Source of the DNA: Sphingomonadaceae bacterium
GTDB taxonomy: Bacteria; Pseudomonadota; Alphaproteobacteria; Sphingomonadales; Sphingomonadaceae
Assembly (NCBI GenBank): GCA_041736905.1
Contig: JBGSSR010000078.1
Coordinates: 1,283-65,282 of the forward strand
Direction of reading: 5' to 3'
Length of the DNA: 64,000 nt
Under the pieces are notes generated by a model. It was not told the DNA's origin. It saw only the letters and a list, made by a program, of their open reading frames with translations, and did not search any database. Below are positions 3,048-23,280 of the stretch, one piece after another. Each line of letters begins with the position of its first letter. Position 1 is the first letter of the stretch. The position numbers and the translations under genes are program-made.

Positions 3048-3050
3048 ACC

Positions 3051-4285: not shown

Positions 4286-5320
4286 ATGTTGGCGCGAAAG
4301 ATAGATTCTGTCCTCATTACCGGCGGGACAGGCAGCTTCGGCAAGACGATGCTCAACGGCTTGCTGGCCGATGGTGTGAGCGAAGTGCGCGTGCTAAGCC
4401 GCGATGAGGAAAAGCAGGATGCGTTGCGTAACCAATTGCGCGACCCGCGAGTGCGCTATTTCATCGGCGACATTCGGGAACGGTCCAGCGTTGACCGCGC
4501 GATGGCGGGCGTCGACGCCTGTTTCCACGCCGCTGCGTTGAAGCAAGTGCCCTCCTGCGAATTCTTCCCGTTGGAGGCCGTGCGCACCAATATTTTGGGC
4601 AGCGAAAACGTCATCCGTTCGGCCATCCAGAACGACGTCAAAAGCCTCGTCTGCCTGTCCACGGACAAGGCCGTGATGCCCATCAACGCGATGGGCATGA
4701 GCAAGGCGATGATGGAAAAACTCGCCCAATCCGCCGCGCGAGAAATCGGCGGCGGAGCTGGCACGACGATAAGCTGCGTCCGGTACGGCAACGTCATGTA
4801 TTCGCGCGGGTCGGTCATCCCTTTGTTCATTAAACAGATTAAGGACGGCAATCCGATCACCGTTACGGAACCCAAAATGACGCGCTTTCTGATGCCGTTG
4901 CGCGACAGTGTTGAGTTGGTGCGGTTCGCGTTCGAACACGCCAATCAGGGCGATTTGTTCATTAAGAAGGCGGCGGCCAGCACGATTGCAGATCTTGTTA
5001 CGGCATTGCTCGAACTCTTCGATGTGCCGAACCATCCTGTTGGCGTCATCGGATGGCGACATGCCGAAAAGCTTTACGAAACGCTGGCTAGTGCGCAGGA
5101 ATTGACCACGGCGGAGGATATGGGCGACTATTGGCGGCTGCAATTGGATGGCCGCGACCTGAATTACAACGCCTATTTCTCGGAAGGGGAAACCGAAACC
5201 GCGGCGCTTGACGATTATCATAGCCACAATACGCACCAATTGGATGTGGAGGGCGTGAAGGCATTGCTGCTCACCCTGCCCGAGGTGCAGGCGGAATTGG
5301 CTTCATGGCAAGCCCAATGA
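4286..5320 (+). CDS. fnlA: UDP-N-acetylglucosamine 4,6-dehydratase/5-epimerase (FnlA/CapE/WbjB family)
   Basis: Motifs VLITGGTGSFGKTML, YFIGDIRE, FHAAALKQVPSCEFFP and STDKAVMPINAMGMSKAMMEK. Start placed at ATG 4286 (GAAGGGA upstream); the ORF opens at 4208. Confidence 0.88.
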   Translation: MLARKIDSVLITGGTGSFGKTMLNGLLADGVSEVRVLSRDEEKQDALRNQLRDPRVRYFIGDIRERSSVDRAMAGVDACFHAAALKQVPSCEFFPLEAVRTNILGSENVIRSAIQNDVKSLVCLSTDKAVMPINAMGMSKAMMEKLAQSAAREIGGGAGTTISCVRYGNVMYSRGSVIPLFIKQIKDGNPITVTEPKMTRFLMPLRDSVELVRFAFEHANQGDLFIKKAAASTIADLVTALLELFDVPNHPVGVIGWRHAEKLYETLASAQELTTAEDMGDYWRLQLDGRDLNYNAYFSEGETETAALDDYHSHNTHQLDVEGVKALLLTLPEVQAELASWQAQ

Positions 5321-6435
5321 AAATAGCAATTACCGGAGCGCGCGGGCTTTTGGGCTGGCACAGCGCGGCGCGGCTCCATGCACAAAATTGTCAGGCGCGG
5401 TTTAAGGGGACGGATGCGCCCTATGAACTCGCGCTGATTGACCATGCGACCTTTGACGACGCCGCGGCGTTGGCTGAGGCGCTAAAAGGCGCGGACGCAG
5501 TGCTCCACTGGGCAGGCGTCAATCGCGGGACCGAGGAAGAAGTAGAGGCGGCCAACCCGGCCATCGCGCGACGTCTGGTCGCGGGCTGTCAGGCGGCGGG
5601 GGTCACTCCGCACATCGTCTATGCCAACAGCACACACGCGGCGAACGACACCTTTTATGGCCGCTCAAAACGCATCGCGGGCGAGGTTTTGGCCGAGTTT
5701 GCGGGTGAGCGTTACACCAACCTCATCCTGCCGCATATTTTTGGCGAGTGCGCCAAGCCATACTACAACAATGTCACCGCAACGATTATTGATCAGTTGT
5801 GGGAGGATGTGACGCCCACGCTCAACCCCGATGGGCGGGTGCAATTGCTCCATGCGGGCGAAGCGGCGCAGATGGCGATTGATGCGGCGCTGGGCGGAAC
5901 CGGCGGGACGTTAGCTCCGAAAGGCCGCGATATTGGGGTCGTTGAACTTTACGAAAAGCTGAAAGGTTTTCACGAACTCTACACCGCCAATATCTTCCCC
6001 GACCTGTCGGACCCGTTCGATTTGGCGTTGTTCAACAGCTACCGCAGTGGCGGTTTCCCCAAACACTACCCGCGCCCTTTAAGGGTCAATGCCGACGCGC
6101 GTGGGATGTTGTTTGAAAGCGCAAAGGGCGGCAATGCCAGCCACACCTTCCTCTCCACCACCCTGCCCGGACAGCGCCGAGGGGAGCATTTCCATTATGA
6201 TTTGGTGGAGCGGTTCTTGGTGGTGCAGGGTGAGGCGCTGCTGCAAATCCGCAAAGTTCTGACGGGCGAAGTGACGGAATTCCGCGTCAGTGGCGACACC
6301 CCCGTCGCCATCGATCAGATACCCTTTCACACGCACAATATCATCAATGACGGCGATACGCCGGTCATCACCTTCTTTTGGACGCACCGGATGTTCGACC
6401 CCGCGCGGCCCGATACCTATGCCGATCCTGTTTAG
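5305..6435 (+). CDS. fnlB: UDP-2-acetamido-2,6-dideoxy-L-hexose 4-reductase/3-epimerase (FnlB/CapF/WbjC family, Rossmann plus C-terminal cupin)
   Basis: N-terminal KIAITGARGLLGWH Rossmann fold. The C-terminal cupin-like GQRRGEHFHYDLVERFLVVQGEALL is arranged as in CapF. Overlaps the fnlA stop and sits between the fnlA and fnlC homologues. Confidence 0.8.
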   Translation: MASPMKIAITGARGLLGWHSAARLHAQNCQARFKGTDAPYELALIDHATFDDAAALAEALKGADAVLHWAGVNRGTEEEVEAANPAIARRLVAGCQAAGVTPHIVYANSTHAANDTFYGRSKRIAGEVLAEFAGERYTNLILPHIFGECAKPYYNNVTATIIDQLWEDVTPTLNPDGRVQLLHAGEAAQMAIDAALGGTGGTLAPKGRDIGVVELYEKLKGFHELYTANIFPDLSDPFDLALFNSYRSGGFPKHYPRPLRVNADARGMLFESAKGGNASHTFLSTTLPGQRRGEHFHYDLVERFLVVQGEALLQIRKVLTGEVTEFRVSGDTPVAIDQIPFHTHNIINDGDTPVITFFWTHRMFDPARPDTYADPV

Positions 6436-6447
6436 AGGACACGACAC

Positions 6448-7605
6448 ATGAGCAAGTTGAAAGTCACCACCGTTCTGGGCACGCGCCCCGAAATCATCCG
6501 CCTGTCGCGCGTCATGGCGCGCCTGGATCAGCACACTGATCACCGCATTGTCCACACGGGGCAGAATTGGGATTATGAGCTGAACGAAGTGTTTTTCAGC
6601 GATCTGGGCGTGCGCAAACCCGATAATTTTATGGGCGTGGACACGTCATCCTTGGGTGCAGTTCTGGGCGGTATCCTCATCGAAACCGAGAAAGAACTGC
6701 GCGCCAATCGCCCCGATGCGTTGCTTGTCCTTGGCGATACCAACAGCGCGATTGCCGCCATTATGGCGCGACGGATGAAAATCCCCGTCTATCATATGGA
6801 GGCCGGCAATCGCAGCTACGACCGCAACGTGCCGGAGGAAACCAACCGGCGACTGGTCGATCATATTAGCGATTTCAATCTGGTTTATACCGAACATGCG
6901 CGGCGGCACTTGTTATCCGAGGGGATGCAGCATCGGCGCGTGTATCTGACGGGTTCACCCATGCGCGAGGTGTTGGAACATTACCGCCCGCAGATTGAAG
7001 CGTCGGATGTGCTGTCCACTTTGGGCCTTGAGGCGGGCAAATATTTCATCGTCTCGCTCCACCGCGAAGAGAATGTGGATAGCAAGGACCGGCTGGCGCA
7101 AGCAATGGCGGCGTTGAACCAACTCGCCGCCGCGTATGACATGCCGGTCATCATCTCCACGCATCCTCGGACTCGGAAGCGGTTGGACGCCATCGAAGGC
7201 CTGGCGCTCGACCCGCGCATCCGCGATATGAAGCCCTTCGGTTTCCACGACTATAACCACCTGCAAATGCAGGCATTCTGCGCGATTAGCGACAGCGGCA
7301 CGATTGCGGAGGAATCGAGCATCCTCGACTTCCCCGCCATCACCCCGCGCGACGCGATTGAGCGGCCCGAGGCATTGGACACCGGCAACATCATCGTCAC
7401 GGGCCTCAATGCCGACACGATTGCCGAAGCCGTAGCGGCGGTGACCGCGATGCATGCTGAACGCAAGGCAGCGGGCGTGGCGGGCATCATCCCTGAGGAC
7501 TATCAGATCATGAACACGTCCGAACGGGTCACAAAACTCATCCTCGGCACCGCGCGTCTGTCCAATGGATGGGATGGCATCCGTATGCACGATTATGTCG
7601 GCTAA
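6448..7605 (+). CDS. fnlC: UDP-N-acetylglucosamine 2-epimerase (non-hydrolysing; FnlC/CapG/WbjD family)
   Basis: KVTTVLGTRPEIIRLS N-terminus, GDTNSAIAA and HMEAGNRSYD motifs typical of WecB-type 2-epimerases. Third gene of the fnl-type triad. Confidence 0.88.
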   Translation: MSKLKVTTVLGTRPEIIRLSRVMARLDQHTDHRIVHTGQNWDYELNEVFFSDLGVRKPDNFMGVDTSSLGAVLGGILIETEKELRANRPDALLVLGDTNSAIAAIMARRMKIPVYHMEAGNRSYDRNVPEETNRRLVDHISDFNLVYTEHARRHLLSEGMQHRRVYLTGSPMREVLEHYRPQIEASDVLSTLGLEAGKYFIVSLHREENVDSKDRLAQAMAALNQLAAAYDMPVIISTHPRTRKRLDAIEGLALDPRIRDMKPFGFHDYNHLQMQAFCAISDSGTIAEESSILDFPAITPRDAIERPEALDTGNIIVTGLNADTIAEAVAAVTAMHAERKAAGVAGIIPEDYQIMNTSERVTKLILGTARLSNGWDGIRMHDYVG

Positions 7606-7617
7606 GGCGCGATAGCT

Positions 7618-8475
7618 ATGGCCCAACCCATTTTCATCATTGGCGCGGCGCGGTCCGGCACGAAATATCTGCGCGATATTTTGGCGACGTCGCCCAATGC
7701 GTGCAAAGTGCCCTATGATGTCAATTACATCTGGCGCTATGGTTTTGAACAGCATCCCGATGATGTCCTACCGCCGGAGCAGATGACCGCGAAGCAAGAG
7801 CAGTTCATCCGCACGCATATCCACCGGCTCGCCAAAACGACGCCCGATGCGGCGACCGTTCTATTTGAAAAAACGGTGAGCAACACGTTGCGCGTGCCCT
7901 ACATCCTGCGCGCCTTTCCCGATGCGAAGTTTATCCACCTGATCCGCGATGGCCGGTCGGTGACAGAAAGCTCGATGCGCCAATGGGAGGCACCGCCCGA
8001 TTGGGGCCGTTTGGTTGAGAAATTGCGCGGAATGCCGCTGCAAAATCTGGGTTATGCCGCATGGTTCGTTGTCGATATTATCAAGGGCAAGTTGGAGCGG
8101 CGCAAGACCGATAAACTGTGGGGTCCGCGCTATCCCGGCATCGTCGATGATGTGCGCGCTGATGTGCCGCTTGCGGAAATCTGCGCAAAGCAATGGGCGC
8201 AATCGTTGGCGACGGCACAGCGCGATTTGGACGCCCTGCCCCATGGCCGCGTCATCACTGTCCGCTATGACGATTTGGTCGGCGGTGAGTCCACGATACG
8301 CCAACTATGCGATTTTTGTGATTTGCGCGAAGCGGATGCCATCGTCGCCAATCACCTTGCCCAGGTCGACAAACGCACCGATGCCAAATGGCGCACCGCC
8401 ATGTCCGACACTGAAAAAACGCAAATGATCCAACACGCCGGCGCTCTGCTTGAGCAGCTTGGTTACAGGGAGTAA
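7618..8475 (+). CDS. Sulfotransferase family protein (PAPS-dependent), ST1
   Basis: 5'-phosphosulfate-binding loop IFIIGAARSGTKYL and 3'-phosphate-binding segment FIHLIRDGRSVTESS. No signal peptide. Embedded in the co-directional sugar operon. Confidence 0.8.
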   Translation: MAQPIFIIGAARSGTKYLRDILATSPNACKVPYDVNYIWRYGFEQHPDDVLPPEQMTAKQEQFIRTHIHRLAKTTPDAATVLFEKTVSNTLRVPYILRAFPDAKFIHLIRDGRSVTESSMRQWEAPPDWGRLVEKLRGMPLQNLGYAAWFVVDIIKGKLERRKTDKLWGPRYPGIVDDVRADVPLAEICAKQWAQSLATAQRDLDALPHGRVITVRYDDLVGGESTIRQLCDFCDLREADAIVANHLAQVDKRTDAKWRTAMSDTEKTQMIQHAGALLEQLGYRE

Positions 8476-8482
8476 TTCGACC

Positions 8483-9640
8483 GTGGAAGCCCGCACTATC
8501 CCCTTTTTCCGCCCCAGCATTGGTGAGGATGAAATCAATGAAGTCGTCGATTGCCTGCGCAATGGCTGGCTCACCACCGGCGCGAAATCGGCTAAATTTG
8601 AGCGGGACTTTTCGGCCTTGTTCGATGATGGCGTGGACTCCATCGCGGTGAACAGCGCCACGGCGGCGCTGCATTTGGGCCTTGAGGCGTTGGGCGTTGG
8701 CCCGGGCGACGAAGTTATCGTTCCCACTTTCACCTTCACCGCCACCGCCGAAGTCGTCCGCTATTTGGGCGCGACGCCGGTGTTCGTCGATTGCGATTTG
8801 GACAGTTTCAACATTGGCCCTGCGCAGATTGAACCCGCCATAAGCCCGCGTACCAAAGTCATCATGCCAGTGCACTTTGCCGGTTTGGCGTGCGACATGA
8901 AGGGCATTCGCGCGCTGGCTGACCAGCATGGCCTGAAAATTTTGGACGACGCCGCGCACGCCCTGCCTACCTATCACGATGGCAAATTGATTGGCGATTG
9001 CTACGCCGATGTCACCGCGTTTTCCTTCTACGCCAACAAGACGATGACCACGGGCGAAGGCGGCATGCTGACCACGCGCGATCCCGCCTTGGCGCAGCGG
9101 GCGCGGCATATGCGCCTCCACGGCATCAACCGCGATGTGTTCAACCGCTTCACCGATACCAAGGCAAGCTGGCAATACGACATCGTTGCGCCGGGCTATA
9201 AATACAACCTGACCGATATCGCCGCCGCGATGGGCCTTCATCAGTTGAAGAAAATCGTCGCGTTTAAGGACGCGCGCAAGGCATTGTGCGATCGGTACAG
9301 TGAGAAACTTGCTGGCTTGCCGCTCATCCTGCCCGCCGTGGCGAAGAAAACGGGCGGACACAGCCACCATCTTTACATCGTGCGCGTCACCGATGGCGCA
9401 GTGATGAACCGCAACGACGTTATCGTCGCGCTGCAAGCCGCGGGCATTGGCGTGTCGGTGCATTACCGCCCGCTACACCGTATGACCTATTGGCAGGAAA
9501 CCTTCGGCCTGACGCCAGAGGCATTTCCGAATGCCGATGCGATTGGTGAGACCTGCATCAGCCTCCCGCTGTTCCCCGGCATGAGCGAGGATGATCAGGA
9601 TTACGTCATCGCCACCTTGCGCGGGCTGTTGGCCAATTAA
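8483..9640 (+). CDS. DegT/DnrJ/EryC1/StrS-family PLP-dependent sugar aminotransferase
   Basis: IPFFRPSIGEDEINEV N-terminus, DDAAHA, SFYANKTMTTGEGG (PLP-lysine region) and MRLHGI blocks. The ORF opens at TTG 8450. GTG 8483, preceded by CAGGGAG, is preferred. Confidence 0.85.
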   Translation: MEARTIPFFRPSIGEDEINEVVDCLRNGWLTTGAKSAKFERDFSALFDDGVDSIAVNSATAALHLGLEALGVGPGDEVIVPTFTFTATAEVVRYLGATPVFVDCDLDSFNIGPAQIEPAISPRTKVIMPVHFAGLACDMKGIRALADQHGLKILDDAAHALPTYHDGKLIGDCYADVTAFSFYANKTMTTGEGGMLTTRDPALAQRARHMRLHGINRDVFNRFTDTKASWQYDIVAPGYKYNLTDIAAAMGLHQLKKIVAFKDARKALCDRYSEKLAGLPLILPAVAKKTGGHSHHLYIVRVTDGAVMNRNDVIVALQAAGIGVSVHYRPLHRMTYWQETFGLTPEAFPNADAIGETCISLPLFPGMSEDDQDYVIATLRGLLAN

Positions 9641-9642
9641 TC

Positions 9643-10320
9643 ATGCTGAAACGCGCATTCGACATCGGTTTTTCCGCATTCATCTTAGTGGCCACCGCGC
9701 CATTGATGGTGGTTGCGGCATTGGGGATAAAGCTGACCTCGCCCGGGCCGATATTTTACCGCGCCAACCGGATGGGCGTGGGTGAGCGGCCCTTTTCAAT
9801 GTGGAAGTTCCGCACCATGCACGTGCGCGAAACCGCTGGACCGGAAATTAGCGCGGTCAATGACACCCGCATTTTTGGCTTCGGCCATTTCCTTCGCGCC
9901 ACCAAAATCGACGAGTTGCCGCAGTTTTTCAACGTGCTGATCGGCGATATGGCCATCGTCGGCCCGCGACCGGAATCGGTGGCGATTGTGCATTCCAGCT
10001 ATCTGCCGTGGATGATGGAAACGCTCGCCGTGCGTCCCGGTGTCACCAGCCCCGGCGCTTTGTTTGGTTACACCCACGCCAACGCGTTGCTCGACGACAG
10101 CGACCCCGATGGCAGCTATGAGCGGTTCGTGCTTGCGCCAAAGCTCGCGGTGGAACTCGCCTATATCCACCGCGCCACGTTTTTAAGTGACGTTGGCGTG
10201 ATGATCCAAACCGCACTTATCATCGTGCAAATGGTGGCGGGAAAGCATGATTTCCCCCTGCCCCGCGATGCACAGGCGAACCGATGGTTTGACTTTGCTC
10301 GATTGGGACAAGCAGCGTGA
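9643..10320 (+). CDS. Small monotopic phosphoglycosyl transferase (PglC/WbaP C-terminal-domain type; initiating sugar-1-phosphate transferase)
   Basis: MLKRAFDIGFSAFILVATAPLMVVAALGIKLTSPGPIFYR re-entrant helix, MWKFRTM, and DELPQFFNVLIGDMAIVGPRP catalytic block. Confidence 0.88.
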   Translation: MLKRAFDIGFSAFILVATAPLMVVAALGIKLTSPGPIFYRANRMGVGERPFSMWKFRTMHVRETAGPEISAVNDTRIFGFGHFLRATKIDELPQFFNVLIGDMAIVGPRPESVAIVHSSYLPWMMETLAVRPGVTSPGALFGYTHANALLDDSDPDGSYERFVLAPKLAVELAYIHRATFLSDVGVMIQTALIIVQMVAGKHDFPLPRDAQANRWFDFARLGQAA

Positions 10321-11501
10321 AAATCCTGCTGACCCACCGCTATTTTTGGCCAGACACGCCGCCTTACGCCAATATCTTGCGCACGCTAGCGACGCATTTT
10401 GCCGATGAGGGGCATGAAGTGCGTGTGTTCGCGTCCTATCCATCTTATGGTAAAATTGAAAAAGGCGCGGCGCTGTTCTTCGATGACCGTATCACCATCA
10501 ACCGCGTGCGCACATTTCAGGAGACGAAATCGAACATCGCGGTGCGCCTGTTCAACACCATGGTCTATTGCATCGCGCTGTTCTTACACATTATCCGTAT
10601 AAAGCCAGATGTGGTCACCGCCGCCACCTTCCCGCCCGTAATTGCCGGATGGGTGGCGAGTTTGGCGGCCAAAATCATCGGCGCAAAATTCGTTTACCAT
10701 ATGCAGGATATTCATCCGGAGGTCAGCCATTACTCCGGCGGTCTAATGCAAAAACGGCCGTTGCAAGCAGCGTTCCGGTGGTTCGACAATCAGACCTTGC
10801 GGCGGGCGAGCGCGATTATTGTCCTGTCGCAGGATATGAAAAACACGCTGGAACGGCGCAGGTTGGCGGGCACATTGCCCATTTATATCATCAACAACAT
10901 GCTGCTGTCCAAATTTGCAGAGGCCGCCGCTCCGCCGCCGGATTATGCCAAAGCAGCCGACAAAAAGCGCATCATTTTCGCGGGCAATATGGGCCGGTTC
11001 CAAAGGCTCGACGTCATTGTGCCACTCATCGTTGCGGCAATGGAAAGCGACCCGCGCCTCGAACTTATGCTCATGGGTGACGGCGAAATGCGCCCCGCGT
11101 TGGAACGGCAATGGGGCCAGCATGCGCAGGTTCAATTCGCACCATTCCTACCGTTTGAAACCGCGGCAACCGTGATGGCGGACGCCGACATTGGCTTGGT
11201 ATCGTTGGCGAAGGACATTTATGCCGTGTCCTACCCGTCCAAAATCCTAAGCTATCTGGGCCTTGGCCTGCCAGTTTTGACCTTTATCGAACCGCATAGC
11301 GGCATCGCTCAAGAAGTCACGCACAACGGCATTGGCGCCACCCCTGCACACGAAACGGCAGCAAGTGTGGGTGAGGCCATCGCCTCCATCCTCTCCAGCC
11401 CCGACGTTAAACAAGCCGTGGCGCAATATTATCAGGACACCTATCGCCACGACGCGATTTTGGCCGAATGGGATAGGATGCTCCATGCAATCGCGTCCTA
11501 A
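10317..11501 (+). CDS. GT4 glycosyltransferase, WbuB-like (L-FucNAc-type transferase family)
   Basis: MKILLTHRYFWPDTPPYANILRTLATHF is typical of WbuB-type GT4 enzymes that accompany fnlABC. GTG start overlaps the upstream stop by 4 nt. Confidence 0.75.
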   Translation: MKILLTHRYFWPDTPPYANILRTLATHFADEGHEVRVFASYPSYGKIEKGAALFFDDRITINRVRTFQETKSNIAVRLFNTMVYCIALFLHIIRIKPDVVTAATFPPVIAGWVASLAAKIIGAKFVYHMQDIHPEVSHYSGGLMQKRPLQAAFRWFDNQTLRRASAIIVLSQDMKNTLERRRLAGTLPIYIINNMLLSKFAEAAAPPPDYAKAADKKRIIFAGNMGRFQRLDVIVPLIVAAMESDPRLELMLMGDGEMRPALERQWGQHAQVQFAPFLPFETAATVMADADIGLVSLAKDIYAVSYPSKILSYLGLGLPVLTFIEPHSGIAQEVTHNGIGATPAHETAASVGEAIASILSSPDVKQAVAQYYQDTYRHDAILAEWDRMLHAIAS

Positions 11502-13964: not shown

Positions 13965-14644
13965 AAAAGCAACTGAAGCAACTTCTGCGCCCCCTTATCC
14001 CGCAATCCATTTTGCAAAAGCGTTTGGATGCGCGGCATAAGCGCTTGTTTGGCGATGCCGACTATAAAACCGCTTTCAAAATCGTGCATGATCAAAACCT
14101 ATGGTTAAACCCCGAAAGCAAAAGCGGTGGTGGATCGACCGTGGAATTTACCCAGCATATCCGCAAGAACTTAGCCGAATGGCTGCACGCCCATGAGGTG
14201 AAATCGATGGTCGATTTGCCATGTGGTGACTTCAACTGGATGCGACTGGTCGATTTTCCTGCAGGTATGAGCTATCACGGAATCGACATCGTTCCCGATT
14301 TGATTGCGGAAAACACGCGCAAATATCTGAGCGATACGGTCCAATTCTCGGTTGGCGACATCATTGAGGGGCCGATTCCTGCCGCAGAGGTCTATTTCTG
14401 CCGCGATGTGTTCATTCATTTTCCCAATGATGCCGTTGAGAAATCTATTGCCAATGTGCGGGCGACCGGGGCGAAGTGGCTGATTGCAACCACTTGCCCC
14501 ACCGTGAAAGAAAAAATCGATACGGTTTTCCCGAACAGCCGTAAACAAAATATGGCACTGTTCCTGGGCGAACCAGACGTGATGCTTGAAGATTTCGGCG
14601 ACGGAAAAACAGACAAATATATGGGCGTTTGGCGGATGAACTAA
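13961..14644 (+). CDS. Class I SAM-dependent methyltransferase
   Basis: Motif-I-like VDLPCGDFNWM, later HGIDIV and VYFCRDVFIHF blocks. ATGA overlap with wzx. Confidence 0.6.
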   Translation: MKKQLKQLLRPLIPQSILQKRLDARHKRLFGDADYKTAFKIVHDQNLWLNPESKSGGGSTVEFTQHIRKNLAEWLHAHEVKSMVDLPCGDFNWMRLVDFPAGMSYHGIDIVPDLIAENTRKYLSDTVQFSVGDIIEGPIPAAEVYFCRDVFIHFPNDAVEKSIANVRATGAKWLIATTCPTVKEKIDTVFPNSRKQNMALFLGEPDVMLEDFGDGKTDKYMGVWRMN

Positions 14645-14690
14645 TCGCGTTGGCATGGGGCCGCTCTATTCGGGCAGCCCCAGCAAGCCG

Positions 14691-15635
14691 TTATAGCCTT
14701 CCGAATTGCAACTGCCCCTTTTCCGCCAAATTGTGCGCGTGCGTGCAAATATCCTCAATAGCTTCTGCCATCCCAACACTGTGCGTCAGGTTGAACGGGT
14801 GCAGCCACAAATGAACTTTTTCGCCTGTCTTGGCGGCATGGTCGATGGCCTTCTTTGCCTGATACATGACCGTATGGCGGCGCAGGGAAGCACCCCTGCC
14901 GAACCAATTGAAGAACAGCGAACCGCTGTGTTCCAATACCCCGTCGGGACGCATGTCTTCGCGCACCATTGGCGGCGTTGCCATGGTTCGGGCCAGAAAA
15001 TGATCCAGAGGCGCTATGCCGCTGGGCCGAACGGCGGGCGCGGGCGTGCGGCCGACGCGGAAGCCAGACTCGGCGAGTGCCGGCCAATCGACGATGATGT
15101 TTTCGGGAAAAACCAAGGCATCAACTGGGCGGTTCAAATCTACCATTGCTCTTCGGCTTTTCACAAGATCCGCCAAAATCGCCTCATGCGTCATGCCCGC
15201 ATAATCGAAACGCGTGTGCGAGTAGCTATGGCTTGCAATTTGTTGCGTCGTGCGGGTGCCAGCAACAATGTCAAACAAATCGCGTCCATCGACCGTCTTG
15301 GCATCCGCCGTCGCCAAAAAACGGGCAATATGCGCCTGCGCGGCGGGAGGCAAATGGTCAAACTCGCCACTATGGCGCGCCGTGACCATGGCACCAACTG
15401 TTGCCCAGGTTAGCGCAATTTCGCGATCATCCAAAAACGCCAAGAACCGACGCATCGCAGGCCGTAAATCGCGGTAGATTCCCCGCGCCTGCCGTGCTGG
15501 CCAAAGCTCACTTTCCCATACCCCCCATCCGATTTCAAAATCAAAGGAGATGATAAGCTGCCCAATTTTCGGAGGAGTTTCCATGGCAAATCCCATACTC
15601 ATCGGGCCGCGAAATTGCCAGCGATAATGGCACAC
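14691..15635 (-). CDS. Polysaccharide deacetylase (CE4/NodB-like) family protein
   Basis: ISFDFEIGWG (motif-1 position), SHSYSHTRF (HxxxH metal motif) and VHLWLHPFNL blocks. No signal peptide. Start uncertain (ATG at 15635, 15602 or 15584). Confidence 0.7.
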   Translation of the reverse strand: MCHYRWQFRGPMSMGFAMETPPKIGQLIISFDFEIGWGVWESELWPARQARGIYRDLRPAMRRFLAFLDDREIALTWATVGAMVTARHSGEFDHLPPAAQAHIARFLATADAKTVDGRDLFDIVAGTRTTQQIASHSYSHTRFDYAGMTHEAILADLVKSRRAMVDLNRPVDALVFPENIIVDWPALAESGFRVGRTPAPAVRPSGIAPLDHFLARTMATPPMVREDMRPDGVLEHSGSLFFNWFGRGASLRRHTVMYQAKKAIDHAAKTGEKVHLWLHPFNLTHSVGMAEAIEDICTHAHNLAEKGQLQFGRL

Positions 15636-15719
15636 GCCGCCTCACTCCAATTGTCAAACAGGGACAAAGCGCGCGCCATTTTGCTTTGTCTTTGCCGCGT
15701 TTGGCGGTAAAGCATTCGG

Positions 15720-17129
15720 ATGCTTTACGTCATGACAATTTTGGTGCTTGGCATTGCCCCGACCGCGCTGCTGTTTTTTGTGGTGGCGATGCTTGGACGC
15801 AACAATGGCTTGAGCCCGCTGAATATTTTGGCGTGGACGATGTTGCTCGGTTACACGTTGAAGAGCCTGTATCTGGCCTATGCTGTCATGGCCGAAGCCT
15901 CCTTCGTGACCGAATATTGGTCACGCGACATTATTCATATTGGGCAGTTGGCGGTGAACGTGGGTGTGATCGCCTTTATCGCGGGCGTTTTAATGTTTCG
16001 GCGAAAGAACGTTCGAACGGATGGAACTCTTATCAACCCTATAACAATGGGCCAACCGGCGCGGTTTCCTGAACTCTATTATTACCCCGTATTCTTCGTG
16101 TCATTGGGCCTGATGGTGGTTTATTTCTTCACCATGGGTTTCCATGAGCAACTGCTACGCGGGCAATTCACGGCGTCAAAATTCTACGTCGATGAGGAAG
16201 GTGGGAAAAGCTCGCTCGCATTCCTGACCTTCGGCGGCGATATGGTTGTTGCCTTTTTCATCTATTGGCTGGCGTTTACAAAGAGGATTACCATCGCCAA
16301 CATCTACGTCCCGGCCATTGCCTTTGTGTCGCTATGCTACATGCTCGCTAGCCGGCGCAATGGCGTGCTCATCATCATCATCGCCACCGTCATGGTGATG
16401 AGCCTTCGCACCATAAATGAAAACGTGTCGTCCAAGTTCAAACGCTGGGCATTGATTGGCGTAGCGTTCCTATTCCTTTCATTCGTTAGCGCTATCCGCA
16501 TGGGTGGTGGCGAAAAGGAAATTCAGGATTTGAGTATTGGTGCATCCATTGGTGTCGCCATGGAACAAACTTTTGAAGGTGCCTATTTCCTCGACCCCGC
16601 CAAAACCGCCGTGATCGTGGACCAGACGGAGAAGAAAAACCTGTATATGTACGGGGAAAGCTTCGTTGGCGCTTTCTTCGCGCCAATTCCCCGCGTGTTG
16701 TGGCCCGAAAAGCCCTTGGTCCGTATTGGGCCATTGGTGGCGCAAACCATCTTGCAGAATAACAACAATAGTGGTGTTCCGCCGGGCGCGGTGGGCGAGT
16801 TTTATATGAACTTTGGCTGGGGCGGCATTTTTGTCGGCATGTTCCTATTGGGAGCGATCTCTGCTCAGCTTTACAACCGCTACGAACGGCACGTCGATAA
16901 GCGGTTCAGTACCCCGGCCTATGCCCTTTTTATGTTGTGCATCATTTTCTTCTTGGTCGCCGACTTCTCGCTCTCGTTCCTGTACGTCATTCGATACGGG
17001 GTCGCGATTTGGATTTGTAGCCAATTCTGGTCAAAAATGGTGGCGAAAAATGAAAGCCCGCGTCGACGGAAATCGTCGCGCGGGCCGGCCAATCCAAATT
17101 TCAATGCAGCGCCAAGCCCGGCGGAGTAG
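15720..17129 (+). CDS. wzy: Oligosaccharide repeat-unit polymerase (Wzy-like)
   Basis: 469-aa polytopic membrane protein with a large loop ...FFAPIPRVLWPEKPLVRIGPLV... typical of repeat-unit polymerases. Visibly lower GC than its neighbours. Confidence 0.65.
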   Translation: MLYVMTILVLGIAPTALLFFVVAMLGRNNGLSPLNILAWTMLLGYTLKSLYLAYAVMAEASFVTEYWSRDIIHIGQLAVNVGVIAFIAGVLMFRRKNVRTDGTLINPITMGQPARFPELYYYPVFFVSLGLMVVYFFTMGFHEQLLRGQFTASKFYVDEEGGKSSLAFLTFGGDMVVAFFIYWLAFTKRITIANIYVPAIAFVSLCYMLASRRNGVLIIIIATVMVMSLRTINENVSSKFKRWALIGVAFLFLSFVSAIRMGGGEKEIQDLSIGASIGVAMEQTFEGAYFLDPAKTAVIVDQTEKKNLYMYGESFVGAFFAPIPRVLWPEKPLVRIGPLVAQTILQNNNNSGVPPGAVGEFYMNFGWGGIFVGMFLLGAISAQLYNRYERHVDKRFSTPAYALFMLCIIFFLVADFSLSFLYVIRYGVAIWICSQFWSKMVAKNESPRRRKSSRGPANPNFNAAPSPAE

Positions 17130-17921
17130 TTACTCTTTCCAGGCGAACAAATCCCCTGCCCGCCAGCGCCAATCTTTTTCCGAAGATGACGATGGCTCGC
17201 CCTTGGTAATTTTTGTCTGATAGCCAAGGCTTTGCATAATGGCCTGTGTTTCAAGGTGCAGCGGTTGGCCCTTAGTATCACGCGCATGACCTTTGGCGTA
17301 AACGCGGGTGCCCTTGGCACTGGCCCGTAAAATATTCGTGGCCCCTTTTAAGACCTCGCCCTCTGCACCATTCACGGTGATGGAAATATAGTCGATGGTG
17401 GTCACGCTATGTTTCGGCAATTCGTCGTCCAACCTAATGAACTGCACCGCAATTGTGTCCATGGCGGCATTGCCGGGTCGGTCGTCATTATCCATCCGAA
17501 TATGGTCGAGGTCGATTTTATGGTCGCCGATGTAAGGCGAGATCGAGAGTTCGCCCAAGCGGTTTTCATTACACGCCGCCGCGCGGATGAGCGTCACGTT
17601 GGTGAACCCGTCCTCGGCAATCGCCTTGGCCAATCGGTCTTGATTCTCCGGCATCGCCTCCACAATGATAAGCCGTCCGGTATCGCCAACCGCGCGGCGG
17701 AAACGACGCATTGTTTTAGGGCGAGGCGTGCCGATTTGGACAACGGTATCGCCGGCATTCACGGCAAATTCGGTGGGCAGGCTGTGTTGCAGCGACAGAA
17801 TGGCTTGCCGCACGCGGTTCTTTCCCGCGCCTTCTTTCATACCGCGAAACGGGATGGTGCCGACACGCACGATGCCGCGCATGCCCCAGTAAATATAGCG
17901 TTCCAGTTTGAATTCACTCAT
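17130..17921 (-). CDS. FkbM-family methyltransferase
   Basis: VVQIGT..., IVEAMPENQDRLAKAI and IDYISITVNGAEGEVLKGA blocks resemble the FkbM methyltransferase domain. Its stop abuts the wzy stop with a 0-nt gap. Confidence 0.7.
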   Translation of the reverse strand: MSEFKLERYIYWGMRGIVRVGTIPFRGMKEGAGKNRVRQAILSLQHSLPTEFAVNAGDTVVQIGTPRPKTMRRFRRAVGDTGRLIIVEAMPENQDRLAKAIAEDGFTNVTLIRAAACNENRLGELSISPYIGDHKIDLDHIRMDNDDRPGNAAMDTIAVQFIRLDDELPKHSVTTIDYISITVNGAEGEVLKGATNILRASAKGTRVYAKGHARDTKGQPLHLETQAIMQSLGYQTKITKGEPSSSSEKDWRWRAGDLFAWKE

Positions 17922-17948
17922 CGGATCTCATCCTTAATTCGGCATAAT

Positions 17949-18863
17949 TTAGTCGATGGCATAGCCATGGCGCTGCATAGCTTTGGCCATAATGGGACGC
18001 ATCGCGTCTCTTTCGGCGGCGGTCAGGCGGGCCAAAGACGCCGCATTTTGGTTCGCGAGTTCGTGATGGTGCCCGTCAATGGAAATGCCATCGGCGACAG
18101 TGTGCATTTCCGGCGCGGGCAGGCCAAGAAAGTCGAATATGCCAGACAGAGTTTCAGAAGGCTGCGCCATCAACTGCTCATAAGTGATCGCATGGCTACG
18201 CGGCACTTCGGCAATTTCGGTGCGGATGTGCTCATCAAAAGCGACCCATTGCCGCGCGGCTAATTCCGCCGGATAGCGTTCCCCGATTTCTGCCTTCGCT
18301 TCACCAAAGGGCTTCGCACGGCGCATGATGCCCTCATTCACGCAATAGCCATTGCGGGTAATCCAAACAAAATGCGCGTTGGGAAAGTGGCGGTTTATCC
18401 ATGCAATGCGGGTGGAGTGGTCGATGGATTTTTCGAAGAAAACGCTGGAGTCCTTATCGAACCAGATTGACCAATCCTGCCGCGCCATTTTCGCCCGCTC
18501 CGCCGCTCCATCCTCGCCCAAGTCCCACAAATGCTGGTTTTTGAACATCATGCGCGGCCACCCGCCGACCTCCAAATTGGGGAAGGCATCGGTCAGCTTA
18601 GCCCCTTCACGCACTGTGGCGGCAATATCGGGATGCGATTCAAGGAGGCGGCGCAATATGGTGGTGCCGCTGTTGTAGCAGCCCACGACGAATAGCCATT
18701 TGTCTGGCTTGGCCTCGCTTAAAAATGGCCGCGCCATGCGCCGAAAGGCGGGCTTAAGCATCAATTTGCCCAACCCCTCGCGCGCCACGCCGCCAATGAC
18801 GTTGCCCTCATTGCGCGCCAAAATCCGCGCCAGACGGTTGTCGGAGTCGTTAAAGCGGCTCAT
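17949..18863 (-). CDS. Sulfotransferase family protein (PAPS-dependent), ST2
   Basis: WLFVVGCYNSGTTILRRLLESHPD (5'-PSB loop) and AHFVWITRNGYCVNEGIMRR (3'-PB segment). The start overlaps the acetyltransferase stop (ATGA). Confidence 0.78.
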   Translation of the reverse strand: MSRFNDSDNRLARILARNEGNVIGGVAREGLGKLMLKPAFRRMARPFLSEAKPDKWLFVVGCYNSGTTILRRLLESHPDIAATVREGAKLTDAFPNLEVGGWPRMMFKNQHLWDLGEDGAAERAKMARQDWSIWFDKDSSVFFEKSIDHSTRIAWINRHFPNAHFVWITRNGYCVNEGIMRRAKPFGEAKAEIGERYPAELAARQWVAFDEHIRTEIAEVPRSHAITYEQLMAQPSETLSGIFDFLGLPAPEMHTVADGISIDGHHHELANQNAASLARLTAAERDAMRPIMAKAMQRHGYAID

Positions 18864-19483
18864 CCTTCACCCTGCATTCTGGCCATCCGTTTGGTCAAAG
18901 GGCTGAACGTTGCTGGGACGCCTTTTGCCAGCATATCGGCGGGCACGTCCTTGGTCACAATCGCCCCCGCCGCGATAACGGCATTGTCGCCAATGGTAAC
19001 GCCGGGAATGATTTTCGCGCCAAGACCGATGTAGACATTATTGCCAATGGTCACCGGACCCTTCGACGTTTCGGCATCGACCAGCACAGGCGAGTTGGTA
19101 TCCGCCGTCACTGAATAAATCGCCACCTGCGCCGAAATCGCACAGCCCTCGCCAATTGTGACGCCGCCCATGCCGGATACGATCGACATGCGTGAAATAT
19201 GCGTGTTCTTGCCAATGTGGATATAGCCATGGCCAGCGGTCACATATTGTCCGCCATCAAACAGCTTTACATTCGCCCCGAGTTTGAAATTCTCGCCCTC
19301 AAACTGCATGTGCCGCCCGATGACGAGGTTTCGGCTACCGAAACGAAACCCCCAATAGATGCCGCGTATTTTGCGCTCCAACCCATAGGCCTTCCCCGGC
19401 ACAAATATGCCGAGCAAGAAACCCGCCGCGCGTGCCAAAATCTCCACCAGCGTCAGCGGCACCAATCGCATTAGAAATCGCAT
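18860..19483 (-). CDS. Left-handed beta-helix (hexapeptide-repeat) acetyltransferase, WcaF/NodL-like
   Basis: Hexapeptide repeats IGKNTHISRMSIVSGMGGVTIGEGCAIS ... VTIGNNVYIGLGAKIIPGVTIGDNAVIAAGAIV. ATG 19483 shares one nt with the upstream TGA. The ORF opens at 19501. Confidence 0.82.
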   Translation of the reverse strand: MRFLMRLVPLTLVEILARAAGFLLGIFVPGKAYGLERKIRGIYWGFRFGSRNLVIGRHMQFEGENFKLGANVKLFDGGQYVTAGHGYIHIGKNTHISRMSIVSGMGGVTIGEGCAISAQVAIYSVTADTNSPVLVDAETSKGPVTIGNNVYIGLGAKIIPGVTIGDNAVIAAGAIVTKDVPADMLAKGVPATFSPLTKRMARMQGEG

Positions 19484-20283
19484 CACGCGCCCCCCACCCA
19501 TGACCGGTCGGGTTCATAGCCCAAATCTATGAGCGCCTGCCCGCAATAATGGTCAAACACTTGCCGCGCTTCGTCGGAAAAGTGGTTGTGCCAATCGCCC
19601 GCGATGCCTTTGCGTAGGAAGCTGGATTTATCCTCCTGCCCTGGTTTGCGTTTGGTTTGGTTTTCGAAGGAATATTTGTCGGCAATCGCCTGCGCCCGTT
19701 CCGGCGTGATATTCAAATCAAAGGCGGCGGCGATGCGCAATATCTCACCCGCGCAATCGGCCAGCATATCCTCGTAACGTGTCTCCACCCGCACCGCCGC
19801 ATGGTCCCGCCATTGGGTCACGAAATCCTGCCATGCGAAGCCCGGCGTGATTTGGCCGGTCGCCATCAACTCGATAAAGCGAGGCATTCCGGCGCGCGTA
19901 TCTGTGACGTCAATGCCCGCCATCTGCTCGGCCACGCGGCTTTGAAATTGGTTGCTAGCGAAGTTATTTTTGAACAGGAGGTGGTGATAAAAACTACACA
20001 CCACATCCCTCCCGTCGCGCCAAATGACGACGATGTCTTTGGGGTTGGGCAGCGTTAGATGATGGCCGTGCAAAATGCACGATCCCAATGGTGGCAATTG
20101 ATTGCGCGGATTGGGAAGCTCAAACAAATCGCCCAAAATCTGGCTTAGCCAGCTGCCGCCGCTTTTGGGATATTCATTGATGGCCGGATGGAACGCCCAA
20201 AATGCCGCGCCATTCCAAATGACGTAGCGTGTGGCCGCGTTCATCACGTGCCACCACCGGGCATCTCTTTGTTTAATGATCAA
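19483..20283 (-). CDS. Sulfotransferase domain protein (Sulfotransfer_1-like, PAPS-dependent), ST3
   Basis: EYPKSGGSWLSQILGDL (PKSGTTW-type 5'-PSB loop) and IVVIWRDGRDVVCSFYHH (RDPRD-type 3'-PB segment). Confidence 0.82.
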   Translation of the reverse strand: MIIKQRDARWWHVMNAATRYVIWNGAAFWAFHPAINEYPKSGGSWLSQILGDLFELPNPRNQLPPLGSCILHGHHLTLPNPKDIVVIWRDGRDVVCSFYHHLLFKNNFASNQFQSRVAEQMAGIDVTDTRAGMPRFIELMATGQITPGFAWQDFVTQWRDHAAVRVETRYEDMLADCAGEILRIAAAFDLNITPERAQAIADKYSFENQTKRKPGQEDKSSFLRKGIAGDWHNHFSDEARQVFDHYCGQALIDLGYEPDRSWVGGA

Positions 20284-20343
20284 AACTTAAAACCCCTGTT
20301 CGCACAGAAAAACGGCATGTTGGTGCGACCCATTGCGTTATGG

Positions 20344-21357
20344 CTAGACGCCATAGAACTCCCGATACCAATTTACAAATTGCTTTATACCATCGCGCAC
20401 GTCCGTTTTTGGGGCATAGCCGGTGAGAGATCGGATCAGGTCCGCATTCGCCCATGTCGCGGGCACATCACCCATTTGCATGTCCATCATGTTACGGATG
20501 GCCTTTTTGCCGAGTTCCGCCTCAATCGCGTCAATGAAATCGGTAAGCTTCACCTTGTCCGAATTGCCGATGTTGACGACACGGAACGGCGCGGCGGGGC
20601 TTAGGCTATCGCCCAGCGCAATATCGGCGGCGCTGTCGGGGCGCACGGGAGCGGCGTCCATCAGCAGCGCAATGCCGCGCACTAAATCTTCAACATACGT
20701 AAAATCGCGATACATTTCGCCGTGGTTATAAACGTCAATCGGCTTATCATGCAGGATATTGGCGACGAATTTGAACAACGCCATATCGGGCCGACCCCAT
20801 GGGCCATAAACGGTAAAAAAACGGAACATCGTCGTCGGAATGCCCCACAAATGCGCGTAGCTATGCCCCATCACCTCGGTCGCCTTCTTCGTGGCGGCAT
20901 AGATGGTCAGTGGATGGTCGGCCTTATCCGTTTCGGCGTAAGGCAAATCCTCATTCGCGCCATAGGCAGAGGAGGTTGACGCCATCATCAAATGCCGCAC
21001 CTGATGCTCGCGCGCGATTTCCATGACGTTGAAACTGCCGACAATGTTGCTGTTGATATAGCTGCGCGGTTGTTCAAGGCTATAACGGACACCGGCCTGC
21101 GCCGCCAGATGCACGATGACTTCGGGACTGAATTCGGCCGATACGCGGGACAAAGTGTCCATATCCTCCAGCATCGCCTCAACCGGCGTGAAGGTCGGGT
21201 GCTGCTTCAATGCCGCATGGCGCGCGTGTTTCAACGCGACGTCGTAATAATCGGTGATGCCGTCATAGCCCATCACCTCATGGCCTTCTTCCAGCAGCAG
21301 CCGTGCGAGGTGGAAGCCGATGAAACCGGCGGTGCCTGTGATCAAAATGCGTGTCAT
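20344..21357 (-). CDS. NAD-dependent epimerase, UDP-glucuronate 4-epimerase-like (Cap1J/LpsL family)
   Basis: MTRILITGTAGFIGFHLARLLLEEGHEVMGYDGITDYYDVALK N-terminus and SSAYG...PLTIYAATKKA (YxxxK) block. Confidence 0.78.
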   Translation of the reverse strand: MTRILITGTAGFIGFHLARLLLEEGHEVMGYDGITDYYDVALKHARHAALKQHPTFTPVEAMLEDMDTLSRVSAEFSPEVIVHLAAQAGVRYSLEQPRSYINSNIVGSFNVMEIAREHQVRHLMMASTSSAYGANEDLPYAETDKADHPLTIYAATKKATEVMGHSYAHLWGIPTTMFRFFTVYGPWGRPDMALFKFVANILHDKPIDVYNHGEMYRDFTYVEDLVRGIALLMDAAPVRPDSAADIALGDSLSPAAPFRVVNIGNSDKVKLTDFIDAIEAELGKKAIRNMMDMQMGDVPATWANADLIRSLTGYAPKTDVRDGIKQFVNWYREFYGV

Positions 21358-22113: not shown

Positions 22114-22228
22114 CTTCGGTTCCTTCGTGGCGGTGTTGCGGTCCATTTACCACTCCATATTTGCATTAGCGAGACTTGTCGCGCAACCTTTGCCAAATTG
22201 AAACGCTTAGCTATTAAAGGCTTTCTGA

Positions 22229-23278: not shown

Positions 23279-23280
23279 GC

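Follow-up and report, generated by a model that had tools for sequence, protein, structure and literature searches.

Polysaccharide gene clusters with several sulfotransferases are already known from Synechocystis, Vibrio, Cobetia, Actinoplanes and Pontiella. Synechan, made by the xss cluster of Synechocystis sp. PCC 6803, is assembled by a Wzx/Wzy system with two sulfotransferases whose gene number matched the sulfate stoichiometry of the polymer (PMC8205485); no other Wzx/Wzy system of this kind is known to have been tested genetically. The capsule locus of Vibrio sp. KMM 8419 holds three sulfotransferase genes spread across it, together with cysNDC, and its polymer is chemically proven to be sulfated (PMC11641403). 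Sulfation is likewise chemically proven for the capsule of Cobetia marina KMM 1449, whose cluster includes sulfotransferase genes (PMC11766843). In the Vibrio and Cobetia work, genes for the sulfate donor 3′-phosphoadenosine 5′-phosphosulfate (PAPS; cysNDC, cysQ) beside the cluster are treated as the hallmark of sulfated-polysaccharide clusters (PMC11641403, PMC11766843). A putative cluster of Pontiella sulfatireligans places a PF13469 gene beside a DegT-type transaminase gene and GT4 genes (PMC7356697), and wps-1 of Actinoplanes missouriensis, a cluster of the Wzx/Wzy type, encodes two sulfotransferases along with a methyltransferase (PMC13390465). We describe here a locus at about 4286–21357 of a 64-kb stretch of contig JBGSSR010000078.1 (the whole stretch of DNA that was analysed, hereafter the window), which combines a Wzx/Wzy assembly system with three sulfotransferases (ST1, ST2 and ST3). 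The host is an uncultured marine, Erythrobacter-like member of the Sphingomonadales.

A coat of sulfated polysaccharide makes the surface of a marine microbe strongly charged, tolerant of salt and able to bind metals, and such polymers are sought as heparin-like biomaterials. We propose, with a probability of roughly three in four, that the locus directs Wzx/Wzy-dependent synthesis of such a surface polysaccharide, more likely a capsule or exopolysaccharide (EPS) than an O-antigen. The proposal draws on the gene inventory, the motifs and neighbourhoods of the genes, and the modelled folds of ST1 and of a deacetylase-like protein encoded in the same locus. Judged by its homologues, the locus is not unique but one member of a widespread, uncharacterised class. 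The locus itself would not surprise a specialist very much; its interest lies in conserved gene pairs, above all one that couples ST2 to the deacetylase-like gene.

Sulfotransferases and assembly genes of the locus

A sequence-only reading of this DNA had quoted six peptides as PAPS-binding signatures, and all six are present verbatim in the translations: GAARSGTKYL and IHLIRDGRSV in ST1, GCYNSGTTIL and VWITRNGYCV in ST2, YPKSGGSWL and VIWRDGRDVVCS in ST3. Pfam profiles agree with the family assignment, at 98.8 bits for ST1 and 86.8 bits for ST2 (PF13469, cut-off 27) and 87.9 bits for ST3 (PF00685, cut-off 22), scores far beyond chance. Neither a signal peptide nor a transmembrane segment was found in ST1, ST2, ST3 or the deacetylase-like protein.

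ST1 gives the weakest sequence match of the three to solved structures (E 0.005). An AlphaFold2 (AF2) model built from a 40-sequence alignment has a predicted local distance difference test (pLDDT) value of 90.3. All 50 listed Foldseek matches of this model in the PDB are sulfotransferase-fold proteins, led by human TPST2 (E 1.4e-7, TM-score 0.60) and followed by CurM, StaL, Teg12, Stf and heparan 3-OST sulfotransferases. The fold thus supports what had been claimed from the motifs, the listed matches being to PAPS sulfotransferases alone. The invariant residues of the family are G9–K16 (GAARSGTK, with R12 invariant), E84–K85 and R110...S118. They supply both the Lys/Arg of the 5′-phosphosulfate loop (R12) and the Arg...Ser of the 3′-phosphate site (R110...S118). 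The family has at least 726 homologues, mostly from marine Alphaproteobacteria.

ST3 is encoded by an open reading frame (ORF) at 19483–20283 on the minus strand with a likely start at 20244, and the 253-aa form is an exact match to the NCBI-called protein. By sequence it matches estrogen sulfotransferase in the PDB (3.7e-12). Conserved among 120 homologues are P26-K27-S28-G29-G30 (PKSGG), H61, R76-D-G-R-D...S84 and R211-K-G-x-x-G-D-W218, the loop lysine K27 (PKSGGSW) being present in 97% of them. The Lys, His, Arg-Ser and RKGxxGDW residues canonical for cytosolic-type sulfotransferases are thus all kept. The family has at least 1384 homologues in many phyla.

ST2 is the least secure of the three by its residues. 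It matches the CurM sulfotransferase (9.2e-9) and TPST2 (7e-6) in the PDB by sequence, and its family comprises 206 homologues. Across 30 diverse homologues the invariant residues are GC(Y/F)NSGT, E85-G86, E143-K144-S145 and R169. Alignment of the ST2 and ST1 families with hhalign (99.7%) sets Asn63 of ST2 against Arg12 of ST1 and Gly177 against Ser118. The family thus has an invariant Asn where the PAPS 5′-phosphosulfate loop has Lys or Arg (GCYNSGTT), and it keeps R169 with Gly177 at the 3′-phosphate Ser position. We read the site as probably working but atypical, not decayed, since the invariance of the atypical residues together with E85, E143-K144-S145 and R169 suggests purifying selection on a working site. 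A non-hydrophobic stretch of about 55 residues that extends the N-terminus is conserved in the family too (R16, N17, G19). Orthology of ST2 with NoeE or NodH was considered and rejected, the NoeE model matching with E 3e-4 over a span of 26 residues.

The sequence-only reading had placed 17 genes between a DUF1501 gene and ubiG. ORF calling and profile searches recover the same 17 ORFs in the interval from the DUF1501 gene (3051–4175) to ubiG (21391–22146, minus strand; TIGR01983, 219 bits). They also uphold the genes that it had named, namely the FnlA/B/C-like enzymes, DegT, the PglC-type transferase, two GT4 enzymes, Wzx, Wzy and the UDP-GlcA 4-epimerase-like enzyme. Four of the 17 had been left undescribed: the S-adenosylmethionine (SAM)-dependent and FkbM methyltransferases, the hexapeptide acetyltransferase and the CE4-like deacetylase. 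The genes are as follows.

4286..5320, plus strand: FnlA-like UDP-GlcNAc 4,6-dehydratase/5-epimerase (PF02719 3.9e-95, with PF08485; TIGR04130 FnlA 437 bits, equivalog cut-off 730)
5305..6435, plus strand: FnlB/WbjC-like 4-reductase (PF14667 1.4e-37, PF01370; NF047837 168 bits, cut-off 500)
6448..7605, plus strand: FnlC/WecB-type non-hydrolysing UDP-HexNAc 2-epimerase (PF02350 1.2e-87; TIGR00236, wecB, 233 bits, above the cut-off of 210)
7618..8475, plus strand: ST1, soluble PF13469 sulfotransferase (7.2e-28)
8483..9640, plus strand: DegT-family sugar 4-aminotransferase, PseC/ArnB-like (PF01041 4.6e-123; PseC 379 bits and ArnB 366 bits, both below cut-offs)
9643..10320, plus strand: small PglC-type polyprenyl-phosphate sugar-phosphate transferase, the initiating enzyme (PF02397 1.6e-49; 225 aa; N-terminal hydrophobic helix)
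10317..11501, plus strand: GT4 glycosyltransferase, WcaI-like (PF13579, PF13439, PF00534; NF007640 1e-30)
11485..12660, plus strand: second GT4 glycosyltransferase, GT4b (PF13692 2e-15, PF00534 2.5e-13; likely start ATG 11485)
12657..13964, plus strand: Wzx-type flippase (PF01943 30.3 bits, cut-off 28.2; at least nine hydrophobic segments)
13961..14644, plus strand: putative SAM-dependent methyltransferase, weakly assigned (PF13649 and PF13847 at E ~1e-3, below cut-offs)
14691..15602, minus strand: CE4-superfamily metal-dependent deacetylase-like protein, 298 aa (PF01522 16.8 bits, cut-off 23.1; family alignment and predicted structure)
15720..17129, plus strand: Wzy repeat-unit polymerase (PF14296 9.8e-15, 54.6 bits; TIGR04370 81.5 bits, above the cut-off of 40; multiple transmembrane segments)
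17130..17921, minus strand: FkbM-family methyltransferase (PF05050 2.7e-10; TIGR01444 59.9 bits, above the cut-off of 37.7)
17949..18863, minus strand: ST2, soluble PF13469 sulfotransferase with an atypical PAPS loop (3.3e-24)
18860..19501, minus strand: hexapeptide-repeat acetyltransferase (PF00132 3e-12; LacA, Maa, NeuD and WcaF-like matches all below equivalog cut-offs)
19483..20244, minus strand: ST3, soluble PF00685 (cytosolic-SULT-type) sulfotransferase (9.4e-25)
20344..21357, minus strand: UDP-glucuronate 4-epimerase-like short-chain dehydrogenase/reductase (SDR) (PF01370 3.2e-52)

The Wzx/Wzy assembly set is complete in the locus, with the PF02397 initiating transferase, two GT4 enzymes, Wzx and Wzy, and membrane topology is consistent with these roles. 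The first GT4 gene is kept in 14 of 26 module loci, and Wzx shares 51–69% identity with the gene at the same position in the related loci L003 and L004. The FnlA-like ORF opens at 4208, its likely start being the ATG at 4286, and the protein is 73–78% identical to that encoded at the same position in L001, L002, L006 and L012–L017. When the three FnlABC-like enzymes were tested for the pathway to UDP-N-acetyl-L-fucosamine (UDP-L-FucNAc), an equivalog-type pass was limited to the 2-epimerase (as wecB); the domain set and gene order match. The pathway type is likely that of the UDP-L-FucNAc route, with the product provisional. FnlA, FnlB and DegT fall below the NCBIfam equivalog cut-offs, and the sugar names are therefore provisional too. 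DegT (likely start 8483) is similarly close to PseC and ArnB, and its best solved relative is ArnB (9.5e-88). The best solved relatives of the SDR are PDB 5u4q (1.7e-110), the 6zl6 series (2.6e-42) and MoeE5 (8e-34), the latter two of which we take to be UDP-GlcA 4-epimerases. A homologue 68% identical to the putative SAM-dependent methyltransferase stands at the same place in a metagenome-assembled genome (MAG) of Erythrobacter, and the acetyltransferase gene is kept beside ST2/ST3 in L003–L006.

The nearest relative is the locus of a Sphingomonadaceae MAG (L003/L007), with proteins 70–95% identical (ST2 84%). It is syntenic from manC and ubiG through GT4 and has one additional PF13469 gene. 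Like it, L004/L008, L005 and L006 are syntenic loci with three or four sulfotransferases, and such loci are also found in Rhodobacterales and elsewhere. Three sulfotransferases accompany Wzy, DegT, the initiating transferase and the acetyltransferase in the Erythrobacter MAG (L004/L008; ST2 65% identical), in the JGI marine contig L005 and in the ENA contig L006. Wza-type (Poly_export) and/or Wzc-type (Wzz/GNVR/AAA_31) genes adjoin L004–L006, a WbpM-type dehydratase gene is found in L004 and L006, and a PF04932 (Wzy_C, O-antigen-ligase-like) gene lies beside L004 and L005. In L005, which has both Wza and Wzc genes, the locus is adjoined at L005:367-3907 (JGI 3300002030, contig BBAY60_10000015) by a cysQ-like gene (Inositol_P), a fusion of cysN and cysC (GTP_EFTU + APS_kinase) and cysD (PAPS_reduct family). 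At least one relative therefore clusters its own source of PAPS with a locus of this type. Across many phyla the commonest neighbours of the sulfotransferase orthologues are DegT, the initiating transferase, GT4 and Wzy.

The fnlABC-ST1-DegT-initiating transferase-GT4 core also occurs in cultured Altererythrobacter sp. ZODW24 and Sinisalibacter lacisalsi. In the latter (L002:12041-13697), ST1 and DegT are followed by a formyltransferase (Formyl_trans_N/C) and a PIG-L deacetylase, and then by the initiating transferase. This layout resembles the Arn (aminoarabinose) pathway, an analogy which implies that the 4-amino sugar would be N-formylated there.

Conserved pairing of ST2 with a deacetylase-like gene

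One genome per species was scanned with an ST2 profile, which gave 80 loci, and all ORFs in them were scored with hidden Markov models for ST1, ST2, ST3 and the deacetylase. ST2 orthologues were taken at 290 bits or more (28 loci) and deacetylase orthologues at 220 bits or more. The deacetylase gene is directly adjacent to the ST2 orthologue in 22 of the 28 species-level loci, usually in the order ST2 then deacetylase with a spacing of 0–25 nt. Two more have it 2.1–2.3 kb away, both of the sphingomonad type seen in the window. The pairing is absent from all 52 loci whose ST2 paralogues are remoter (Alteromonas, Marinobacter, Gemmatimonadota and others). Carriers of the pair include Rhodobacterales, Rhizobiaceae, Arenicellales, Granulosicoccaceae, Pirellulales, Bacteroidota, Auribacterota and a deltaproteobacterial MAG, and the association spans Alpha- and Gammaproteobacteria, Planctomycetota, Bacteroidota and others. 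Among cultured strains, Jannaschia sp. KMU-145 (L016) and Maritimibacter dapengensis (L024) have the pair. An ST3 homologue is present in 16 of the 28 ST2 loci, and 11 have at least three sulfotransferase genes.

The reverse test, starting from the deacetylase in metagenome contigs, gave the same picture. An ST2-family gene ends at the deacetylase start in 24 of 26 orthologues with upstream DNA; of the two exceptions, one reflects an artefact of ORF calling and the other is closely related to the window. In 8 of 24 metagenome loci the next gene after the pair is of the ST3 family. Below 220 bits, 44 of 48 deacetylase-family loci lack a sulfotransferase neighbour, and the remaining four comprise three deacetylase genes clipped by contig ends and one that scores 219.9 bits. 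Several Rhodobacterales-type loci have an extra, weakly ST2-like ORF (52–62 bits) downstream of the module (L012:11763-12734, L013:10046-11047, L014:12574-13578, L015:11516-12520). Counting this ORF, L014 and L015 have four sulfotransferase genes and L012 and L013 have three.

The deacetylase-like protein itself is divergent. Its PF01522 score lies below the gathering score, its PDB profile match has an E-value of 0.0077, and no NCBIfam model matched it. PF01522 is matched by 18 of 23 relatives (E up to 1; best 5e-7) and DUF2334 by 5 of 23. In an alignment of 23 homologues from related loci, the invariant residues are D16 and E18 (SFDFE), H120 and H124 (HSYSH), R180, and H263 and P264 (HxWLHP). 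An AF2 model built from 60 sequences (pLDDT 96.7) has as its top Foldseek match 3rxz, a mycobacterial putative polysaccharide deacetylase (E 1e-8). The Helicobacter pylori peptidoglycan deacetylase HP0310 (3qbu, listed after 3rxz), CE4 esterases, chitin deacetylases and GH57 barrels also match, and human NDST1 stands at rank 17 (E 1.2e-4). Identity to solved deacetylases is at most about 15%. The protein combines a (β/α) barrel, taken from the model, with a D/E...HxxxH...H set, taken from the alignment. On the strength of the model we regard it as a predicted cytoplasmic, metal-dependent deacetylase-like enzyme of an unannotated family.

The wider family comprises 907 representative clusters (E up to 1e-3) in a library of 1.84 billion proteins. 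Some of its distant members are fused C-terminally to other domains: SAM-methyltransferase in P0448, P0475, P0488 and P0496 (559–614 aa), and ATP-grasp (and PHP) domains in P0457 and P0503 (689–969 aa). These fusions suggest that the wider family may free an amine for modification by a partner enzyme. The methyltransferase at 13961–14644 was considered as a split counterpart of the fused methyltransferase domains and rejected, there being no similarity.

A second association concerns ST1, since ST1-like genes in the relatives always lie beside the DegT aminotransferase gene, in both the close and the diverged version. The pairing of ST2 with the deacetylase would be most simply explained by consecutive action of the two enzymes at one position. 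A literature search for a deacetylase–sulfotransferase pair in bacterial EPS clusters found no description, and the pair looks like an apparently new and distinctive feature of this class of loci. The class is compact, extends over several phyla and partly over cultured strains, and ties three families of sulfotransferases to specific neighbouring genes, for an aminotransferase and for a deacetylase. We know of no bacterial polysaccharide sulfotransferase of these families with an assigned acceptor. The conserved pairs make the sugar, the position and the O- or N-linkage of the sulfate directly testable.

Proposed product, alternatives and genomic setting

PAPS is found only in the cytoplasm, and Wzy pathways assemble their repeat units on undecaprenyl phosphate. 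We propose that the repeat unit is built on this lipid at the cytoplasmic face and is probably a trisaccharide, because the locus has one initiating transferase and two GT4 enzymes. As building blocks, the FnlABC-like enzymes would provide a 2-acetamido-2,6-dideoxy-L-hexose of the L-FucNAc type and DegT a 4-amino sugar, and the epimerase might contribute galacturonic acid. Decorations would have to be added to the nucleotide sugars or to the lipid-linked unit before flipping by Wzx and polymerisation by Wzy, since PAPS is cytoplasmic and the three sulfotransferases and the deacetylase are soluble proteins without signal peptides. They would amount to up to three sulfates, methyl groups (FkbM and the weaker methyltransferase), one acetyl group and one de-N-acetylation. 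The conserved pairings of the genes point to separate tasks: ST1 would act on the DegT-derived initiating amino sugar, ST2 would work together with the deacetylase, and ST3 would add a further sulfate to the same region. Export would be by Wza/Wzc encoded elsewhere in the genome. The sequence-only reading had expected a repeat-unit polysaccharide sulfated at up to three positions. The sulfated polymer is supported by the profiles, the motifs, the ST1 model, the Wzx/Wzy set and the PAPS genes of L005, and none of the in-silico refuting tests proposed in that reading, as far as they were run, went against it; the number of positions is an upper bound taken from the gene count.

Several points weigh against this proposal. 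The activity of ST2 is less certain, with non-canonical residues at two predicted PAPS-contact positions, and in the window ST2 and the deacetylase gene lie 2.3 kb apart with FkbM and an inverted Wzy gene between them. Genes for Wza, Wzc, WaaL and Ugd were not found in the 64-kb window, so that the export route and the supply of galacturonic acid are read from relatives; the Wza/Wzc genes that adjoin L004–L006 suggest that they are presumably elsewhere in this genome. Genes of PAPS synthesis (cysD, cysN, cysC, cysQ) were not found across the window either, and this absence cannot count against sulfation because the window is a 64-kb piece of a 66.7-kb contig.

How the sulfates are attached allows a more specific, and tentative, reading. 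ST2 and the deacetylase may be a split bacterial analogue of the animal NDST, with N-deacetylation of a lipid-linked hexosamine followed by N-sulfation by ST2 (or ST3), and ST1, paired with DegT, might N-sulfate the 4-amino group likewise. The near-obligate pairing across phyla is consistent with this, as are the barrel and metal-site residues, which resemble those of metal-dependent de-N-acetylases and bring NDST1 among the structural matches. The domains fused to distant relatives of the deacetylase are ones that typically derivatise a free amine, and ST1-like genes always flank DegT. The EPS of Pontiella, whose cluster has its PF13469 gene beside the transaminase gene, was reported to be 75–80% N-sulfated (PMC7356697), although that figure comes from an indirect nitrous-acid assay. 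Yet the sequences hold nothing that separates N- from O-sulfotransferases, and CE4 enzymes also include O-deacetylases. A freed amine could also be left as it is, which would make the glycan zwitterionic, or receive a methyl or a new acyl group, and the formyltransferase beside DegT in Sinisalibacter argues that the 4-amine there is acylated, not sulfated. We therefore consider it possible, but on balance doubtful, that the ST2–deacetylase pair, often joined by ST3, is a widespread N-deacetylation/N-sulfation module, a cytoplasmic counterpart of NDST working on lipid-linked units. If it is, the Wzy-dependent surface polysaccharides of many marine bacteria would contain N-sulfated, heparan-like hexosamines, which would explain reports of N-sulfated bacterial exopolymers. 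The pair would also provide soluble bacterial enzymes for the step now limiting microbial heparin production (PMC13353177, PMC11069525). Whatever the linkage, fewer than three sulfates may be added. At least one sulfotransferase could be inactive, redundant or condition-specific, and in the synechan system one of two sulfotransferase deletions had little phenotype (PMC8205485). ST2, which has Asn in place of the loop Lys/Arg and Gly in place of the 3′-phosphate Ser, is the weakest candidate, but the invariance of these residues in so diverse a family speaks against loss of function, and we think such a shortfall rather unlikely.

The proposal of a sulfated capsule or EPS has also to be set against products of other kinds. 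An initiating transferase, Wzx and Wzy are equally typical of O-antigen clusters, the window is without Wza/Wzc genes, and the PF04932 gene beside L004 and L005 would suit the assembly of a lipopolysaccharide (LPS) O-antigen. Sphingomonadaceae, however, generally carry glycosphingolipids in place of LPS, and the Wza- and/or Wzc-type genes next to L004–L006 are arranged as in group-1-type capsule/EPS export, which makes an O-antigen improbable. Far less probable still is that the sulfotransferases act off the glycan, on carotenoids, other small molecules or protein tyrosines, and that their location is incidental. Sulfated carotenoids are known in Erythrobacter (PMC6627997), and the nearest solved relatives are tyrosylprotein and polyketide sulfotransferases for ST1 and ST2 and small-molecule SULTs for ST3. 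Against this, all three genes are embedded among glycan-assembly genes on both strands, their orthologues lie inside glycan loci in many phyla, and profile scans of the window found no carotenoid or peptide-precursor genes nearby.

The surroundings of the locus contain a few further features. A DUF1800/DUF1501 pair (1584–4175) borders it and is found in Altererythrobacter sp. ZODW24 between fnlC and the ST1 gene (L001:7374-9871), a recurrent association. Just past ubiG, at 22229–24090, are a mannose-1-phosphate guanylyltransferase gene (TIGR01479, 328 bits, below cut-off) and a short manA-like gene, in the same position as in L003; either this glycan or another could draw GDP-mannose from them. 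G+C content is 0.53–0.54 across 13000–18000 (Wzx, methyltransferase, deacetylase, Wzy and FkbM) against about 0.57–0.59 in the flanks. A mild dip of this sort is usual for the variable part of glycan loci. Scans for tRNA genes and Rfam families across the 64 kb revealed no sign of mobile elements or of integration, genes of mobile elements were likewise not seen, and we make no claim of horizontal transfer. There are no tRNA genes in the 64 kb, and the only RNA found in the Rfam scan is a bacterial class A RNase P RNA (RF00010, 271 bits) at 46555–46935 on the minus strand. Two ORFs, 68–1165 (365 aa) and 31898–32371 (157 aa), are without Pfam matches at E up to 1e-5. A run of minus-strand genes at 52457–56140 encodes an aldehyde dehydrogenase, AstA (arginine N-succinyltransferase) and an M20 peptidase; they are probably part of the arginine succinyltransferase catabolic pathway and unrelated to the glycan locus.

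Comparison with known systems

The rarity of sulfated bacterial glycans had been overstated in the sequence-only reading, since the same architecture occurs in many marine genomes and multi-sulfotransferase clusters have been published (PMC8205485, PMC11641403, PMC11766843, PMC13390465). Its remark that no characterised locus of this composition was known in the lineage has held. The literature on sulfated glycans or sulfotransferase loci of Erythrobacter/Erythrobacteraceae yielded nothing relevant, subscription papers on marine alphaproteobacterial sulfated O-antigens lying outside the coverage.

Synechan and the locus described here have in common a Wzx/Wzy cluster with more than one sulfotransferase, drawn from different Pfam subfamilies. 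The synechan cluster is cyanobacterial and plasmid-borne, has eight glycosyltransferases, uses neutral hexoses and is regulated by XssQRS; it has no amino-sugar pathway and no deacetylase. The window locus, in contrast, has three sulfotransferases, FnlABC and DegT, the CE4-like deacetylase and methyl- and acetyltransferases, and no such regulators were seen in it. The Vibrio and Cobetia clusters resemble L005 in that PAPS genes are clustered with sulfotransferases in marine Gram-negative hosts. They differ from the window in being dependent on an ABC transporter (Kps), in their rhamnose, glucose and mannose, and in their size of 70–80 genes, with sulfotransferases that are unassigned, whereas the window locus is compact and of the Wzy type, has amino sugars and is without PAPS genes in the window.

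The amino-sugar genes have their counterparts in the L-FucNAc pathways of Staphylococcus aureus (Cap5E/F/G) and Pseudomonas aeruginosa O11 (WbjB/C/D). The order of the three genes and their families (Polysacc_synt_2, Epimerase + Polysacc_synt_C, Epimerase_2) are the same. FnlA and FnlB of the window lie below the equivalog cut-offs, which leaves the stereochemistry at C-4 uncertain and hence the product (L-FucNAc, N-acetyl-L-quinovosamine (L-QuiNAc) or N-acetyl-L-pneumosamine (L-PneNAc)).

Rhizobial NodH, NoeE, LpsS and KpsS share with the window sulfotransferases an alphaproteobacterial origin and PAPS-dependent, cytoplasmic sulfation of a glycan. In the synthesis of Nod factors, too, a sulfotransferase is found together with a CE4 deacetylase (NodB). 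The rhizobial substrates differ, being lipo-chitooligosaccharides, LPS or K-antigen, and the amine freed by NodB is acylated, not sulfated. NodH is a member of PF13469 (PMC11625862). The Pontiella and Actinoplanes clusters belong to other phyla and are predictions with partial chemistry; neither paper reports a sulfotransferase–deacetylase pair there.

A functional parallel to such a pair may be the animal NDST, whose deacetylase domain is a (β/α)7 barrel with a His-His-Asp site (PMC10864358). Both systems would combine a (β/α)-barrel deacetylase that has a His-His-Asp metal site with a PAPS sulfotransferase. NDST is a single fused Golgi protein that acts on a finished polymer, whereas the window encodes two separate cytoplasmic proteins, for which N-sulfation is putative.

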